This document shows positions 1 to 53,252 of a stretch of DNA of 64,000 nt, piece after piece (within the stretch, counting starts at the first letter, position 1; every line of letters starts with the position of its first letter). Source of the DNA: Eledone cirrhosa (Eukaryota); contig OZ024751.1 of the NCBI GenBank assembly GCA_964016885.1, positions 21,328,001 through 21,392,000 of the forward strand. The letters run 5' to 3'. The position numbers and the translations under genes were made by a program. The notes under the pieces were generated by a model. That model worked only from the letters and a program-made list of their open reading frames with translations. It made no database searches and was not told where the DNA came from.

Positions 1-107
1 CCTGAAACCTTTGGTAATGGAATAATTATATTGTGTTGTTTATTATGTAATTAAATAGCTCTGTACTATACATATAGCACTCTTCTTTCCTTCACCTCTT
101 ATACGGA
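1..107 (+). mobile_element. HHR-element 3' half and tail, cut by the window edge; family of 1373-1592
   Basis: GAAACCTTTGGTA-ATGGAATAATT...tgttgtttatta...agcactctt aligns with the HHR 3' half and tail of the 1373-1592 element. Ends in (TA)n. Confidence 0.65.
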
Positions 108-332
108 TATATATATATATATATATATAGATAAATCTACCAAAATATACGGTAGTGTCCAATCCGTATGAACAACTCAATGTAATCCAAATATCATGAA
201 AAGAGAAGATGCATTCAAAAATTTTCGATAAATATCATAGGATCTTAATTTAATTTATATATACATATATATATATATATATAAAATTACTAAGTCAAAC
301 ATGTTAAATTTGTCTTCGCTTATTATAATTCT

Positions 333-385
333 CTGCTATATATATTTCAGTTACAGCCATTATTGGCTGTGACCTCATCAGGCAG
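333..385 (-). ncRNA. Type I hammerhead ribozyme, complete
   Basis: Minus strand reads CTGC-CTGATGA-GGTCACAGCCA ataa TGGCTGTAACT-GAAA-TATATAT-A-GCAG. Stem I CTGC/GCAG, long stem II, palindromic stem III, AUA cleavage triplet. Lies in island 284-497 between (TA)n tracts. Confidence 0.85.
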
Positions 386-770
386 TACGAATTAATGTAG
401 AAAAAACAGGTAAACATGGTGTCGTAATTCGTTCCACTGTCAATTCATCGATATGTCCAGCTCCTGGGTGTGTTGTTAGTCCACAGGGGAACTGGAATAT
501 ATATAGGTAACCCATACACTATAGAAACAATTGTTACCTAATAAATTCTGTATACCCGCATTTCCATTTCATAAACTTCTTCTCTCTCTATATATATATA
601 TATATATTTATATATATAAAATATATATAGTAATAATAATAAATGTGAAGTCTAAAATCCGAAGAGGACTCGATAAGGATAAATATATATCAGGAGATCC
701 TGTTAAGGGTGAAAGCAGCGATTCTTTGCTTAAACTTTAATCTGCTATTTTAATAAATATATATATATAT

Positions 771-1108
771 GTTTAAGCAAAGGGATATTTAATTTGTTGG
801 TAATTCAACAGATATATATATTTATAACTGATTCGAAGCACTCAACAGATTTTCTGGAGTATAATATCAATGATATTAATAAATGGAAATTATATTTATA
901 AAACCATATTTATTCTATTATATATATTTCAAGGGCACCAAAACTCTTGAACCGTTAAGATCTCCTTCCTGGATATGTCAATATTTATAAAACAAACTTT
1001 GTATTTTATCTGATGAGAGCGTACCAAAGTTTTGGTACCCTTGAAATATATATAATAGGATAAATATGGTTTTATAAATATAGTTTCCATTTATTAATAT
1101 CATTGATA

Positions 1109-1109
<1 letters not shown>
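771..1109. mobile_element. Fold-back HHR mini-element resembling an inverted PLE pLTR
   Basis: Inverted arms about 864-945 and 1028-1109 around the HHR, (TA)n on both sides, homologous to about 20577-20812. Confidence 0.8.
1002..1062 (+). ncRNA. Type I hammerhead ribozyme, complete
   Basis: TATTTTAT-CTGATGA(1010-1016)-GAGcGTACCAAA gt TTTGGTACcCTT-GAAA(1043-1046)-TATATAT-A(1054)-ATAGGATA. Stem I is 8 bp with two G:U pairs. Homolog at 20708-20772 keeps the pairing. Confidence 0.88.
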
Positions 1110-1169
<60 letters not shown>

Positions 1170-1170
<1 letters not shown>

Positions 1171-1353
1171 GTAGGTCCCGGGTTGAGTCGGGGATAACCA
1201 CAGTAAGTAAGGTACTCAATACATGGCAGAGTAAAATATTTTTATTTTATAGAAGGAGCTTCTACAGGACTAGTACTGTTTCATTGAGCTTCCTGAAGAT
1301 TTCATCTGAATGAAACAGTACTAGTCCTGTAGAAGCTCCTTCTATAAAATAAA
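1170..1353. mobile_element. Fold-back HHR mini-element
   Basis: Perfect inverted arms 1241-1285 and 1309-1353. Extra tail 1170-1240 contains gtactcaatac. Flanked by (TA)n. Confidence 0.8.
1286..1338 (+). ncRNA. Type I hammerhead ribozyme, complete
   Basis: GAGCTTC-CTGAAGA(1293-1299)-T TTCA tc TGAA T-GAAA(1312-1315)-CAG tactagtc CTG-T-A(1331)-GAAGCTC. Perfect 7-bp stem I, GUA triplet, palindromic ACTAGT in loop III. Confidence 0.85.
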
Positions 1354-1372
1354 TATATATATATATATATAT

Positions 1373-1592
1373 AAATGAAGTAATTCCGTCGGAAAAGTCC
1401 AGGAAAAAAGAGTGCTCTATGTAGGTAACAAAGCTTAATAGTTATGTAATAAACAACATAAGGCAATTATTCCATTTACCAGTGGTTTCTTAAACCAGGA
1501 TTTTTTCATTCTGATGATTGAAAGCAAAATTTTTTGCTTTTAAGAAACCACTGGTAAATGGAATAATTGCCTTATGTTGTTTATTACATAAT
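1373..1592. mobile_element. Fold-back HHR mini-element
   Basis: Perfect inverted arms 1442-1494 and 1539-1591. Extra tail 1373-1441. Flanked by (TA)n. Confidence 0.8.
1504..1563 (+). ncRNA. Type I hammerhead ribozyme, complete
   Basis: TTTCATT-CTGATGA(1511-1517)-TTGAAAGCAAAA tt TTTTGCTTTTAA-GAAA(1544-1547)-CCACTGG-T-A(1556)-AATGGAA. 7-bp stem I, 11-12-bp stem II, GUA triplet. Confidence 0.88.
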
Positions 1593-3663: not shown

Positions 3664-4372
3664 TCTCCAGTACTTAACTGCTACGTTATATTATCGAACT
3701 AGGAAGAAAGAAAGTCAACGCTAACTTCGGCTGGATTTGAAATCAGAACGTAGAAAATCGTAAATAAATCCTGCAATGCATTTTGTCCGACGCTCTACCG
3801 ATTCTATTGCTTATCCAGAACACTGATAACAACAACAACAACAACAAGAGCTACCATCATGAAAGCATACATGGCCAACTCTATCGCAAACGACACAGTC
3901 ACCAAAGAACCAGCGAGAGAGCATTAATATTGGTTTCTGATTTAGACACAAGGCCATGAATTTGGTGGGACGGGTAAGTCGATTAAATCGACTCCAGTGC
4001 GTTACTGGTATTTTATTTTATTGACCTCCTAAGGATGAAAGGCAAAGCTAACATCGGCGGGGTTTGAACTCAGAACATAAAGGGCCATAACTCTATGCTG
4101 CAAAGTATGGTGTCCAATGCTCTACAGATTGTGCCAATCCTCTACCCTTATTAGTTTCTGATTTAGACACAAGGCCAACAATTTTAGGGAGGGGAAAGTC
4201 TATTAAATCGACCCCAGTGCGTTACTGGTATTTTATTTGATCGACCTCGCAAGGATGAAAAGCAAAGCTAACCTCGGCAGGATTTGAACTCGGAACGTAA
4301 AGAGCAGTAAGTATTATATATGCCACAAAGCATAGTGTCCGACGCTCTACAGATACTGCCAACCCACCGCCC
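3664..4372 (-). mobile_element. tRNA-derived SINE family 1, three copies
   Basis: Minus-strand consensus TGGCAGTATCGG (A box)...GAGTTCAAATCC (B box), then GCCTTTCATCCTTACGGGGTCGATAAAATAAAGTACCAGT. Copies at about 3664-3810, 3933-4150 and 4154-4372. Confidence 0.8.
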
Positions 4373-5587
4373 TAATAGTAGTAGTTATAACGAAAGCAAC
4401 AACAACAGCAACTACAGCAACACCAGTAAAAACTACAACAACAACAACAACAACAACACCAGTAAAAACTACAACAACAACAACAACACCAGCAAAAACT
4501 ACAACAACAACATGTATAGCAACAATATCAACAACGACAACAGCAAACACAACAGGAAACACTACAACAATATCAATGGTAACACTACAACAACAACAAC
4601 AACATCAATAACAATAACGGGTATAACTACAATAACATGCAACACCACGATCCCCACCATACAAACAACAACAACAACAATAAAAACAACAACAACAACA
4701 ACAACAATAATAACAGCCATAACAACAATAACAACTATAAATTAAGTTTTTAACAAAATTAACAACATAAATATAAAGGTAGGGAAAAAATAGTTGGAAA
4801 ATGCAAAGCTGTGGAAAAACTATTAATTATGTTGAAACAACGGCCCAGGGGGATGGATAGTAAATATTGTGTGTTTTATAGAGGGTAGTGGGGGTGGAGT
4901 AGTGAGAAAGAGGGTGAGTTATAAAGGAGGTATTGTAGTGATGGAGAGAACGGAGCTTATAGAAGGAGGGGGGGTTGTAGTCATGGAAGAACGGAGCTTA
5001 GAACGGGGGGGGGGTCGTAGTAAGAAAAAAGTGTGCGGTGGATTTAGGGGTTATCGGGAGGGGACATGTTAGCAAGAGAAAAAAAAAAGAGAGAGAGAGA
5101 GAGGGGCCGGGAGGAGATTGGAGGCCTTTATCGTGAATGATTTTGTAGTTAAAGTGGGGGGGGGGGGGTTATAGGGAGATGTTTTAACGAGAGAGAGAAA
5201 GAGAGAAGAGGTGGTGTTGTAGTGAGAGGGAGAGAAGGGGAGCTTATAGTAGTTGATGTAGTGAGAGAGAAAGAGAGGTGGTTCATAGAGGGTGGTGGAG
5301 TTTTAGTAAGAGAGAGAGAGGGGGGTGTTTCTTTGGTGCAGTCTGTTCCTGCATAATAATATTGATCTCAGGGTTCAATACACATGTAATAGAACAGGAT
5401 TAAGGAAAGGATTTAGGGGGTTAGGTGGGGTGGGGGACAATAAATATATACGGGGAGAAAGAAAGCGAGAAAAAAATAAAGAAAGAAAATAAATAAGAAA
5501 GAAAGAAAGAAAGAAAGAAAACAAAGAAAAGAAAGTAATATGGCTGTTTAAAAGTTGGATATGTATTCAATATGTGTGTGAATATAT

Positions 5588-5643
<56 letters not shown>

Positions 5644-5981
5644 ATATAAATCTAGGGAACAAGCAACGAACATGCATGTATGTATACACACATGCACGAC
5701 TTTTTCTCTTCTATCTTACTTAAAATGTCACACAAATTATTCATACAAGTTTGTCTCTTATAATAACTAAAATTGGTAAAGCTGCTGCTGCTAACTCGAA
5801 CCAATCATTCACCATTCACAACACATGCTTTCTATCCCCCCCCCCCCCCCCACACACACACACGTTAAGGGTGAAAGCAGCGATTCTTTGCTATAATCTG
5901 TTATTTTTATATATATATATATATGACCGAAATGGGACCTTAAGAATATGATACACTTACTACCGTAGGTGTATCATATAT

Positions 5982-8238: not shown

Positions 8239-8286
<48 letters not shown>

Positions 8287-8289
<3 letters not shown>

Positions 8290-8509
8290 ATAATAATAAA
8301 TTTGAAGACTAAAATCCAAAGAGGGCTCGATAAGGATAAATATATATCAAATATATAAGAACGGTAGAGCAAATATTTATTAAAATAACAGATTAAAGTT
8401 TAAGCAAAGAATCGCTGCTCTCACCCTTAACGGGATCTTCTGAAACTCAGAAGATCCCGTTAAGGGTGAAAGCACCGATTCTTTGCTTAAACTTTAATCT
8501 GTTATTTTA

Positions 8510-8517
<8 letters not shown>
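8287..8517 (-). mobile_element. Fold-back (TA)n-embedded family C, fullest copy
   Basis: Tail, then inverted arms of about 75 bp centred on tctga-aac-tcaga. Partial copies at 630-758, 5864-5908, 6764-6829, 22746-22780, 22896-22930, 41326-41370 and 52958-53130. Confidence 0.8.
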
Positions 8518-20457: not shown

Positions 20458-20812
<355 letters not shown>

Positions 20813-22255: not shown

Positions 22256-22777
22256 ATATATATATATATAAAGTCTAAAGTCTGTCTTAAGAAGGCTCAT
22301 TTGGCCAATGCTTATCCTGACTGAGAGTACAAGACTCTCTCTTGGGCAGGACGCAAGTCCATCGGAGGGTTAAACCCTCATTTTCAACTGAGTATACTGG
22401 AGCAACGTGAAATGAAGTGTTTTGCTCAAGAACACAACACGCAACCCAGGAATCGAACCCACGACATTATGATCGTAAGTCGAACACCCTTACCAGGAAG
22501 TCACACACACCCACATATATATATATACACACACATACATATATATATATATATTTTGATTTTGGCTGTGCGGATGATATGTTTAACCATCATCTCAGTG
22601 TGTTTGGCCCTTAACGTATGTTGTAGCTCTGATTCATATGATTCATCGAGCGCTTGCCACACATATCGGACGTTGATTTTCGTTAATTCCTGAGCTGAAA
22701 ACGATTCTCGCTAATTTATATTTATATATATATATATATATATATCTTTGGATTTTAGTCTTCAAATTTATTATTAT

Positions 22778-22865
<88 letters not shown>

Positions 22866-22930
22866 GTGTATATATATATACATATATATATATATCTTTG
22901 GATTGTAGTCTTCAAATTTATTATTATTAC

Positions 22931-23060
<130 letters not shown>

Positions 23061-24809: not shown

Positions 24810-25222
24810 TTAGAGTTATGGCTCTTTACGTTGTGAGTTCAAAAAGCCTCGATTTTAGCTTCGCCTTTCGTCCTTACGGGGTCAATAAAATAAAGTACCA
24901 GTAACGCACTAGGGTCCATTAAATCGACTTCCTCCTCCCCAAAAATTCTTGGCCCTGTGCATCAACCAGAAAGCATTATTATTATTGTCGCAGTTAGTTT
25001 TGCCTTTCATCCTTACGGGGTCGATAAAATAAAGTACCAGTAATGCACTGGGGTCAATTTAATCGACTTTCCCCTCTCCCAAAATATGTTGGCCTTGTGC
25101 CTATATAAGAAACCATTATTGTCAAAGTTAGTTTTGCCTTTCATCCTTATGGGGTCGGTAAAATAAAGTACCAGTAATGTACTGGGTAATTGTTGGCCTT
25201 GCGCCAAAAGTAGAAACAATTA
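24810..25222 (+). mobile_element. SINE family 1, three tandem 5'-truncated copies
   Basis: Three repeats of gcctttc(a/g)tcctta(c/t)ggggtc..aaataaagtaccagt..ttggcc(c/t)tg(t/c)gc..agaaa, separated by attatt. Confidence 0.8.
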
Positions 25223-36886: not shown

Positions 36887-37490
36887 TCATCCCTTGAATC
36901 GCAAGAATGTTTTGCAAATTTTGAAGGTGCCAGCTATCGCAGCCATTTGTAGACTATGAATTAGGGAGCTGCGCTCTTTGTTCGCAAATCCAAGTTCAGC
37001 CATACTTTGGTCCAAGCGGGTTGGTATATAACCCGTAGCTCCAATAATGATGGGTATGTATCTTGGATACTGGATTTGTAAACTCCTCATTAATGGTCCG
37101 TAGATGTCCTCCTTCTCCTGTATTTTTCTGACAACGTTTACATCAAGTGGGCAGCTGATCTCCACAACAGAACACGTTTTCAATGTGTGGTCCCAAACAA
37201 CAATATCAGGCCGGTTGTGCTTTAATTTGGTGGCAGTTTTTATTTTCAGGTTCCACCAGTATTCCTTAGTGCCATCTGTCTCAATATATTCTTCCTCGTT
37301 TGTTGTTAATTTTGTTTTCCGAAGTGCGTTCCAGATGGTTCTAGCTATCCCATCGTCTCTCATGAGGAGGTAGTAGCGAGATGACATTCTTTCGCAGCTG
37401 GCAACAATGTGGCTTACATCCTCGATCTTTGTGTTACATAGCCTACATTTATTGTCAGCTGATGGCCCTCCCCTTTTGTGCAGCAGATAC
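36887..37490 (-). pseudogene. CCHC zinc knuckle and restriction-like (PD-(D/E)xK) endonuclease of an R4/Dong-type LINE
   Basis: CRLC..EDVSHIVASC, WWN, HNRPDIVVWD..CSVVEISCP, EKEDIYGPL, PIIIGATGYIP. The upstream start of the predicted ORF is a product of the deletion junction. Confidence 0.9.
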
Positions 37491-38284
37491 TTCGTCTCAG
37501 GGACAAAATTTTGCTTTTTAAATTTCGCATCCACGCTGGTTCAGGCTTTTTGTGTGTATCTTGATTGCGTGGTTTTAGATGTGTGTTATATGATAGCAAT
37601 GTGACAGCTGAAACATATAACAAAATATTAAGCGTTTCAAATGTCGTTTCTACACCTTTAGATCGTATAGCCTTCAGATAATTGTCAGCTATTTCCTTCA
37701 CCGCTTCCAATTCCAATTTAGTGGGTTCTTTACTGATTCTGGTGTTGTATGGTTTGTCACTCACATTAAGGCTGTGTATCTCTTGAAACATATCGTCCCA
37801 TATCACTTGTAAGATGTCCACAAGTTTTTGGTGTTCTATTTGTACAGTAGTCATGAATTTCAGCCTCGTTGTTGATGTGGTGACAATTACTACTAGAGTT
37901 AGCTGACCATTTTCGCTGTTCTTCAGTGGAAGTGGGATGGATTTCAGCAAAATTGTTGGTGAGCTGTTCACTGTTAGATTTAGCTGGCCATTCTCTTTGT
38001 CTGTCAGTGGAGGTGGGGTGGTTGTCTACAAGGGCTGTATTTGTAGTATCACTCAATTCCGTTAAATGTATCAATTTACATCTAATGATACGTTTTGCCT
38101 GTTCATTTAAATTCTTTGGAGAAAAGTCTAATTCTGGGTGTTTGGAGTTCCATAAAGTTTTTAGCCTTTGCATGAAACCGAACTTTTGGGGTTCAGATTG
38201 TTTGTATGCTTCATATAATTCTTTGTTAAGCTCGTAGCTCCACTGTATACAACGGTTGTAGTTGCGATTTGTACATTTTGCCAT
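37490..38284 (-). pseudogene. N-terminal region of the same LINE ORF, frameshifted
   Basis: IQWSYELNKELYEAYKQSEP..GFMQRLKTLW..P..LNEQAKRII and LNILLYVSAVT...PAWMRNLKSKILSLR resemble R4/Dong N-terminal motifs. Reading continues across one frameshift. Confidence 0.75.
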
Positions 38285-39047
38285 GATGAGTTCGTCTATT
38301 CACTAATATTTTGCATTTATTTTTCAAAATAGTCGATGATCTTCTTTAAATGTTTCGACAAAGTTCTGTCAGAATCAAATTTAAAGTTATTCACAACTTG
38401 GGTAATATTTCTTTTCAGTTAGTTTGTATTTCTACAACTGTGTTTTAAACGTTGTTCTTGAATCGTTTGAATCGAGAACAAAAAAAACAAACCGTTACTT
38501 AGTATATTTCTTTATGAATGTAATATAATATAACAACGCTGTATTTATATGTTAAAGTTTATGTATCATTCATATAAATAGGTGTTCTACAACTTATTCA
38601 CAAAATATTCACAGTTCAAACACTTATGTTTTTGTTTCTGAATCGAAAATGTTACTTGCATATTTCTTTATAAATGTAATATAACAACGTTGCATTTATA
38701 TGTTAAAGTGTATGTATCGTTCATATATCATAAGTGTATGTATCGTTCATATATCATAAGTGTATGTATCATTCATATAAATAGGTGTTTTACAACACAC
38801 AGTTCAAACACTTATGTAGAATTATTATATGTAATCTTATCGCGTAATGTAGCTCAACTTTTTCCAATATATGGTATGTTGCCTTCATGTAAGCCGTAAT
38901 TACACACGTCCGATTATCGGACACTGACCACAACGGTCGCCATTGTATATGTATGTATGTGTGTGTGTATGTATGCATGCATGTAAGTATGTATCCATCT
39001 ATGTATGAGTATGTATATGTATGTATGTATGGATCTATATATATATA

Positions 39048-40630: not shown

Positions 40631-40862
40631 GTATATATATATATATTTCGTTTCTGAATTTGTTTAGCAAGATTCTTTATCTGAAAACGTGTGTTGAAAC
40701 CGATATTGTTATGCTTTGGGAGGGTCATGTTGCCAATAAGAAACACACGCACCAGTTGCTTTCACTTCAATTTATTATAAATTAAATTTATAAATTTAAG
40801 AATTTATAAATTTCCGGCTGGTTGGTTGGTTGGTTCCACAACCAGACGATTGTTCATATATT

Positions 40863-40905
40863 GTCAAAGTTCTTTCGTCACACATTATGTGACCTCTTCA
40901 GTGAC
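40863..40905 (-). ncRNA. Minimal type I hammerhead ribozyme in the 3' region of a PLE remnant
   Basis: Minus strand GTCA-CTGAAGA-G-GTCACAT aat GTGTGAC-GAAA-GAAC-T-T-TGAC. Very short stem III and a non-optimal CUU triplet. Confidence 0.72.
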
Positions 40906-41093
40906 TGGGGATTCTTTTCTTTGTTTTTCTGCCTCTCCTTTGTTCTGTCCTACGCCATCTTGTTTTTGTGTGTGCTGTGTGCTTAGTTTGCGCATGTGTT
41001 ACATCCGGGTGCCTGTGTGTGTTTATATTTGTTTATTGATTTATTTATTTACATGTTACTGGCTGGTTGTTTGTTCTATGTGTGTGTGTGTTT

Positions 41094-41219
41094 TCATTTT
41101 GTCCTTAATTGTAAAGTTGTGATGTTGCTATTCCATTCATGTTTTCTATTTAATTTTGGTTGGAGTTCATTTATGTTTATTGCATCTGTGATTTGTCTAA
41201 ACATTGCGTCTTTTCTGTG
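41094..41219 (-). pseudogene. PLE GIY-YIG endonuclease C-terminal remnant
   Basis: Translates HRKDAMFRQITDAININELQPKLNRKHEWNSNITTLQLRTK*, matching the R-x-I-x-(E/D)A-x-x-I...P-x-LN-x-K-x-EW end typical of PLE GIY-YIG domains. Confidence 0.75.
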
Positions 41220-41256: not shown

Positions 41257-41330
<74 letters not shown>

Positions 41331-41438
41331 TAAAATAACAGATTAAAGTTTAAGCAAAGAATCGCTGCTTATTACTATATATATATATATATATAGATAT
41401 AGGTATAGATATAGAGATAGATAGATAGAGATAGATAG

Positions 41439-52957: not shown

Positions 52958-53252
<295 letters not shown>

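Follow-up and report, generated by a model that had tools for sequence, protein, structure and literature searches.

Within Penelope-like elements (PLEs), the Hydra clade is marked by an RWK motif, a DKG motif changed to DKT, a CxCX5C linker replacing CX2-5CxxC, the lack of CCHH, and CxxC and CxH around the conserved E and N, as the Hydra section of PMC8557442 sets out, and nearly all its members insert into (TA)n and carry canonical hammerhead ribozymes (HHRs), including Hydra-1_Obim from Octopus. The HHR table in the supplement of that paper has CTGAAGAT...TGAA as the usual core form of this clade. In vitro work on PLEs has so far dealt with a Poseidon element, PAc of Anolis carolinensis (PMC11167929), for which both DNA strands were reported to be cleaved and extended and uncleaved RNA to be the substrate. 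The formation of inverted repeats by PLEs is named an open mechanistic task by Craig 2021 (PMC8557442). A 2026 repeat annotation of Octopus vulgaris describes 31 recently active Penelope-like families in a main text without hammerheads (PMC13282606), and a literature search among openly accessible papers, bioRxiv supplements aside, found no paper on hammerhead counts in octopus genomes.

Here we analyse a TA microsatellite tract in a stretch of 64,000 nucleotides from Eledone cirrhosa (contig OZ024751.1 of assembly GCA_964016885.1; hereafter the window). Four islands in this tract are very probably the 5'-truncated pLTR ends of four coding Hydra-clade PLE families, likely inserted singly into one TA microsatellite and bearing hammerheads that are predicted to self-cleave.

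Results

The region at 1-1605 is a TA microsatellite tract broken up by short unique islands, four of which (B, E, F and G) carry hammerhead motifs, each being a multicopy repeat bordered by TA runs. The features are, in order:

1 to 107, plus strand: fifth PLE end, 3' part, with kinship to the family at 1375-1592
129 to 242, unstranded: island A, end fragment of another TA-flanked repeat family
284 to 498, minus strand: family B, very likely a 5'-truncated 3' end (pLTR) of a Hydra-clade PLE
333 to 385, minus strand: HHR1, type I, stem I of 4 bp, long stem II, predicted cut after 337
504 to 586, unstranded: island C, fragment of another repeat family
629 to 758, unstranded: island D, fragment of an abundant TA-inserting fold-back family
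772 to 1108, plus strand: family E fold-back, with an inverted tail at about 772-863, an inverted arm at 864-952 and a direct pLTR at about 947-1108
1002 to 1062, plus strand: HHR2, type I, stem I of 8 bp, palindromic stem III, predicted cut after 1054
1106 to 1169, unstranded: (TA)n target run between E and F
1170 to 1353, plus strand: family F fold-back, with an inverted tail at about 1170-1239, an inverted arm and a direct copy at about 1284-1353
1286 to 1338, plus strand: HHR3, Hydra-type core CTGAAGAT...TGAA, stem I of 7 bp, weak stem II, predicted cut after 1331
1375 to 1592, plus strand: family G fold-back, with an inverted tail at about 1375-1437, an inverted arm at 1438-1494 and a direct copy at about 1495-1592
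1504 to 1563, plus strand: HHR4, type I, stem I of 7 bp, long stem II, predicted cut after 1556
107-128, 257-283, 589-629, 757-771, 1354-1373 and 1595-1605: similar (TA)n runs
20708 to 20772, minus strand: sixth hammerhead, in the end of a sister family of E

Islands E, F and G are long fold-backs, which the first-pass annotation of this DNA had overlooked, with arms at 864-952/1021-1109 (E, 89 nt), 1236-1288/1306-1358 (F, 53 nt) and 1438-1494/1539-1595 (G, 57 nt). The direct copies of the E and F fold-backs finish at the shorter of two termini (see below); the family B copy is single, likewise stops at the short terminus and has neither tail nor inverted arm. In the fifth PLE end, a decayed hammerhead-like core starts about 50 nt left of the window edge and does not pass the descriptor (GAAA at 4-7, UA^ at 15-16, base of stem II decayed), and this end is 74% complementary to 1385-1476 over 92 nt. 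When the fetched loci and the window were searched by blastn, island A gave 15 matches (nearly all of the 14 shown are TA-flanked at one end), island C gave 3, counting itself, and family D gave 65, with window copies near 5864 and 6762, at 8286-8515, near 22745 and 41325, and at 52958-53130. The copy at 629-758 has lost its ribozyme core, and no family D core was recovered. Fold-backs of family D, including the copies at 22745-22931 and 41325-41370, show short and long ends. Elsewhere the window holds repeated SINE-like units (3700-4370 and 24855-25186), which we take to be tRNA-derived cephalopod SINEs, and, on the minus strand at 36890-38299, broken non-LTR retrotransposon frames with the restriction-like endonuclease motif RPDIVVWD.

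The first-pass annotation had claimed four mutually dissimilar hammerheads in this tract, and descriptor searches confirmed four type I motifs at the coordinates above, with CUGANGA and GAAA cores, a NUH triplet, stems I-III and an open stem I; the four cut sites it had proposed are correct as predicted positions. A strict type I descriptor (CTGANGA, stem II, GAAA, stem III, NUH, stem I) matched HHR1 (minus), HHR2 and HHR4 (both plus) and, elsewhere in the window, the motif at 20708-20772 (minus), while none of 2,000 dinucleotide shuffles of 1-1600 reached three strict cores (mean 0.001). HHR3 failed this descriptor because its stem II has a basal U.U, and it was accepted by a relaxed (Hydra-type) descriptor in which stem II may be flanked by an additional base on both sides. 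With the relaxed form, the shuffling control that had been suggested at first pass came out clearly, the real 284-1592 giving 4 matches and 2,000 shuffled versions giving 0; over the whole window there were 5 matches versus 0 in 30 shuffles. The dissimilarity of the islands was upheld as well, as short-word blastn found just 13-14 nt words in common, and despite it GAAA TATATA TA is common to HHR1 and HHR2. The Rfam search that had been proposed alongside did not recover the motifs: the whole window gave 0 matches, hence no hammerhead family, at the gathering score, and none of the 36 sub-threshold matches on 1-1700 at E<=10 belongs to a hammerhead family, many of them being miRNA hairpins that fall on the fold-backs. 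We infer that the missing match reflects a limit of the covariance models for PLE variants and that an Rfam match is not ribozyme-defining.

Comparison with related families showed that the HHR of B is 94% identical to that of its sister family, versus 60-61% in the flanks, and that sisters of the G type carry compensatory changes in stem II; the HHR of E is 80% identical to that of its sister at 20708, a level not above that of the following 40 nt (90%). These data bear on the reading that the motifs are a chance output of AT-rich palindromic sequence, for which one could cite that HHR1 and HHR2 have a TA run as stem III and that Rfam is silent on the motifs. Besides the absence of matches in the 2,000 local shuffles, however, a shuffled random genome gave 1 match in 2 Mb against 35 in 0.4 Mb of real sequence, and the motifs occupy the known pLTR position and persist from one sister family to another, with changes that compensate one another. 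Shuffling and conservation together refute a chance product, to which we attach practically no probability.

In fold predictions, stem III of HHR1, HHR2 and HHR4 forms no hairpin alone, yet is self-complementary (palindromic AUAUAUAU in HHR1, ACCA-C-UGGU with a 1-nt loop in HHR4), and these three ribozymes would need a second copy, that is a dimer, to form it, dimeric cleavage being as expected from PMC4209133. HHR3, whose 4-bp stem III closes a palindromic loop, might work alone; the stem II probability of 0 computed for it means just that the 12-nt segment alone forms no RNAfold hairpin. Self-cleavage is predicted for the hammerhead of each island. In folds of whole islands the probability of stem I is 0.85 in B and 0.0 in E, F and G, and in HHR2 the inverted arm is predicted to tie up stem I. 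Since stem I is not expected to form in E, F and G, these three fold-back copies would probably be silent in read-through RNA, the arm blocking the ribozyme. Four contig sets that we guessed to derive from RNA matched an F copy in scattered short pieces with no joints or ends, and such contigs cannot show RNA ends.

Genome searches revealed that the islands are dispersed multicopy families; single-copy islands, which the first-pass annotation had named as an outcome that would refute it, were not what was observed. The four island searches returned 904, 1,338, 4,095 and 680 first-look candidates, and full-length matches to each island lie on many contigs among the 40 candidates scored per search; the 44-nt core of HHR3 has 1,904 exact genome matches, its reversed control 0. 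Copies finish at one of two fixed TA-like termini, short or long, with the long end lying about 93 nt (B), 82 nt or more (E), 70 nt (F) and 68 nt (G) beyond the short one, so that tails measure about 68-93 nt. The 5' junctions vary from copy to copy, as for independent 5' truncation. We then examined 88 loci of E, F and G for fold-backs, leaving aside those that lack a partner arm and treating two arms as one insertion. Of the 48 insertions counted, 41 combine one short and one long end, 3 have symmetric ends and 4 are unclear, which makes 41 of the 44 classifiable ones asymmetric. Within family F, 21 of 30 arms begin no more than 6 nt from a single site, the 5' edge of stem I, and 9 extend beyond this start hotspot into the 3'UTR.

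In longer copies, all four families lead upstream to GIY-YIG-coding ORFs of Hydra-clade PLEs, and RT sequence is also found upstream for E, F and the B group. For family B the ORF lies about 1 kb upstream at five loci (L078, L080, L081, L091 and L094), whose ORF-linked ends are 80-89% identical to the window copy, and thumb and endonuclease are present in L227. The intact ORF for B is taken from a younger sister family (end 73% identical) with ORFs of 856-894 aa (894 aa in L293); a B-like end also occurs in L249 together with a match to aa 322-894 of this sister ORF. Several intact frames of 856-894 aa were seen in this young Hydra family (L291-L295), which is possibly still active. One of its loci, L294, has the order pLTR - tail - 5'UTR - ORF - 3'UTR - pLTR, and its ATG lies 51 nt beyond the long terminus; the tail is thus the start of the next unit. 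Family E ends with 95.7% identity to the window copy have RT and GIY-YIG ORF pieces upstream (L269, L278 and L279). For family F, L329 has a 754-aa RT/GIY-YIG ORF upstream of the end, L327 and L328 have the endonuclease part there, and all three loci have the ORF end and a 3'UTR of about 2 kb in common. Family G shows a GIY-YIG ORF end upstream in L219, L220, L222 and L223, and the upstream walk in its long copies recovered just thumb end, linker and endonuclease, with no RT domain. Thus, as in EN+ PLEs, a single ORF with RT and C-terminal GIY-YIG stands upstream of the pLTR (in G without the RT part), and the copies display direct/inverted pLTR arrangement, 5' truncation and a tail at just one end.

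The encoded proteins contain RWK/RWR, DKT, YRDD, CxCX5C, YIG/YVG, CxxC..E and N..CxH motifs. RWR with DKT is found in F and RWK with DKT in the B sister (the N-termini of E and G were not recovered); the CxCX5C linkers read CNCPDKTTC (F), CNCRIESNC (E), CSCRKPDEC (G), CNCRNPESC (B sister) and CNCRIPTLC (B copies L080 and L094); CxxC..E and N..CxH are present in 4/4 families. CX2-5CxxC is absent from these ORFs, with a Neptune control (L232) showing the opposite pattern, and the absence of CCHH was judged by eye from the alignment. The TA flanks of the copies agree with (TA)n insertion by this clade. By motifs and by visual comparison with Hydra-1_Obim, rather than by a tree, the families are assigned to the Hydra clade; Nematis, at one point considered, was dropped for Hydra after the motifs in the Hydra section of PMC8557442. 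The kinship with PLEs and the presence of several families, both proposed at first pass, are supported by real PLE-type type I hammerheads, by upstream GIY-YIG ORFs with Hydra motifs and by the tracing of each of the dissimilar islands to its own PLE family. Proteins of the other families are 35-41% identical to the F ORF. Pfam, run on six ORF pieces, returned no family bar one chance DUF at E 0.095, a PDB sequence search found no significant match, and ESM Atlas neighbours of the F ORF scored 0.96-0.99, with HTH_animal, GIY-YIG or RVT_1 on some members.

Several other ORFs were rejected as parents: a Neptune-type ORF in L025/L232 and an ORF in L165, which we take to be Poseidon-like, both belong to neighbouring elements with their own 3' ends, and an RT in L194 is joined to a G copy via an inversion and has a different linker. 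A reading of family F as having a fixed 5' end and no parent, which a biased query had suggested, was overturned by an unbiased pattern sample. Some of the loci showed further peculiarities. L232 (G000:C3:199327000-199336999, minus) holds a 1,257-aa open frame of a very abundant Neptune-type PLE with 39,627 first-look candidates, and a 3'UTR fragment related to it lies at about 40781-41119 of the window. L219 (G000:C2:69707900-69717899, minus), L220, L221 and L223 contain two HHR copies about 1.2 kb apart. In such long G copies the upstream HHR is often altered (CCGAUGA, CUCAUGA or CUGAUUA; GUG at the cut site) and the terminal one intact, which may point to selection for RNAs uncut between ORF and 3' end. 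At 200-1570 of L296 (minus-oriented), the last ~300 nt of F including the HHR are fused to another Hydra-type ORF at its endonuclease end, a joint that is a chimera or template switch between families. Within the 3'UTR of the F element in L329 (minus-oriented, 4171-5690) lies a nested fold-back whose 495-nt arms are 99% identical.

The upstream ORFs weigh heavily on whether the islands are short and non-autonomous, being retrozyme monomers or SINE-like derivatives of pLTRs whose small RNAs PLE proteins mobilise in trans, as the word 'non-autonomous' in the first-pass annotation had implied. Such elements would account for the short length of most copies, for the clustering of the 21 F arm starts, for a few TA-flanked F monomers of about 75-145 nt (L165, L180, L187 and L188) and for the presence in this genome of a true retrozyme array (L347, 11 units of 310 bp), and retrozymes are linked to PLEs in PMC7229834 and bioRxiv 10.64898/2026.07.22.740005. 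They do not account for ORFs upstream in all four families, for the 9 F arms that reach past the hotspot into the 3'UTR, or for 5' junctions that differ between copies; moreover, no head-to-tail multimers of short units were noticed in the fetched-copy alignments (by inspection, not by systematic count), the single HHR of each window copy means that two cuts cannot free a monomer, and head-to-tail HHR units lacking a coding parent in cis, the hallmark of retrozymes, are not what the four islands present. We therefore withdraw the term for the islands as a set and consider such a mode of mobilisation improbable; it is most plausible for family F, where a small residual chance of non-autonomy is retained.

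The density of the cluster was gauged by descriptor search of 40 stretches of 10 kb at round coordinates (400 kb) of the 3.0-Gb assembly. This sample contained 35 matches, and five shuffled versions of it together gave 1; 11 of the 35 fall in one 310-bp tandem array, leaving 24 non-array motifs, 20 of which lie within 200 nt of (TA)5+, versus 27% of bases. Extrapolation gives a total of about 1.8 x 10^5 motifs in the genome, or 2.6 x 10^5 with the array, figures that are rough because the motifs are clumped: 27 of the 40 stretches have no match and two have 5 non-array matches each. The array, in a randomly picked stretch (L347, 245-3387), is retrozyme-like, with at least 11 units of 310 bp and a type I HHR in each. 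Around family-anchored loci, 12 of 168 have 3-4 further matches, and 18 of 107 have another window family nearby, in varying combinations that in no case repeat the set of the window. Among 280 random 1.3-kb tiles, 22 contain any of seven window families and 2 contain two; a 1.3-kb span that holds four families, their cores intact, is thus denser than any tile (Poisson P ~7e-6 at mean density).

This density is what would commend a host-selected or co-amplified ribozyme cassette on one read-through RNA. Against such a cassette stand the occurrence of motifs on both strands, the predicted sequestration of three of them by fold-backs (stem I probability 0.0), a distribution that is clumped anyway and the varying combinations of neighbours, and we consider it very unlikely. 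The window is best explained as the dense tail of a clumped distribution, probably arising through repeated insertion into TA runs, which each insertion would regenerate. Of the serial colonisation of TA runs that had been proposed at first pass, TA targeting and independent insertion stand, as neighbours differ among copies; the sequence gives no indication of which island came first, since they lie side by side without nesting.

Discussion

Our preferred reading, 5'-truncated ends of coding Hydra-clade PLEs, suggests a route of insertion by analogy with the in vitro work on the anole PLE. The element endonuclease would nick both strands of a (TA)n run, and reverse transcription would begin at two RNA-internal sites, one per strand, often halting after about 70-250 nt and, in F, mostly at the base of the ribozyme. 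The two short cDNAs would then be joined head to head, a two-nick joining suggested by end patterns only. Because copies span the cut site, the template RNA appears to have been uncleaved, in accord with the anole data. Each insertion would leave TA on both sides as fresh target, so that families pile up.

A bolder version is conceivable, though we consider it less likely than not: the genome would harbour on the order of 10^5 Hydra-PLE hammerheads, one RNP would prime both TA strands from two RNA sites, as the short/long fold-backs (41 of 44) would record, RT would stall at the ribozyme base, and a 4-nt palindrome (AGCT in F) would join the cDNAs. If true, insertions would be shaped by the hammerhead as a structural stop, and in family F a non-autonomous mini-element would be in the making. 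Judged by its sequence, the cluster itself is ordinary, consisting of four new families of an already known clade. The discovery value is small, as Hydra-clade PLEs with hammerheads and TA targeting, one of them from Octopus, are described in PMC8557442; the first-pass proviso that a match to known PLE pLTRs would remove the novelty but not the call thus applies, with the call standing and the novelty gone. The near-strict short/long rule nonetheless supplies a countable footprint of PLE inverted-repeat formation, and the young sister family of B, with several intact frames of 856-894 aa, is a source of Hydra-clade protein for in vitro work. Elements of this kind stay unclassified because Rfam misses the stubs and Pfam the ORFs.

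Compared with the Hydra clade as portrayed in PMC8557442, the families share the single RT-GIY-YIG ORF, RWK, DKT, the CxCX5C linker and CxxC/CxH, a canonical type I HHR close to the 3' end (core CTGA(A/T)GA(T)...(T)GAA, loop III of 0-3 nt), and (TA)n insertion, along with 5' truncation, an inverted truncated copy and a one-sided tail, which that paper ascribes to PLEs in general. By eye, none of the four HHRs matches the one listed there for Hydra-1_Obim of Octopus bimaculoides, so the four islands represent other families. They also differ from that description in the length of the tails (about 68-93 nt, the PLE figure there being 30-40 bp), in microsatellite-rich 3'UTRs of 1-2 kb and elements exceeding the '<3 kb' given for Hydra, in the 8-nt palindromic loop III of HHR3 and in long G copies with two HHR copies about 1.2 kb apart.

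The short/long pairing of fold-back ends matches both the one-sided tail of PLEs (Craig 2021, PMC8557442) and the two internal RT start sites reported for PAc (PMC11167929). As in the account of PAc given there, the tail lies between two RNA-internal RT starts and continues towards the ORF, and the target is AT-rich; the likeness in use of both strands and in uncleaved RNA is read here from sequence alone, whereas PAc was studied in vitro. PAc belongs to a different clade, and its ORF begins inside the HHR, unlike that of L294. The metazoan PLE min-HHRs characterised in PMC4209133 resemble the motifs described here in being type I HHRs in pLTRs with a weak or palindromic helix III and expected dimers, mostly single motifs of truncated PLEs, with opposite-strand pairs 100-700 bp apart; the motifs here retain a helix III of 3-4 bp, and our estimate of about 10^5 compares with up to ~9,000 min-HHRs per genome in that report. 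Finally, the islands resemble non-LTR retrozymes, as presented in PMC7229834 and bioRxiv 10.64898/2026.07.22.740005, in being short, non-coding-looking type I HHR repeats with kinship to PLE pLTRs, but retrozymes are head-to-tail tandem units with an HHR each, whereas the islands are single or head-to-head ends of ORF-bearing elements.
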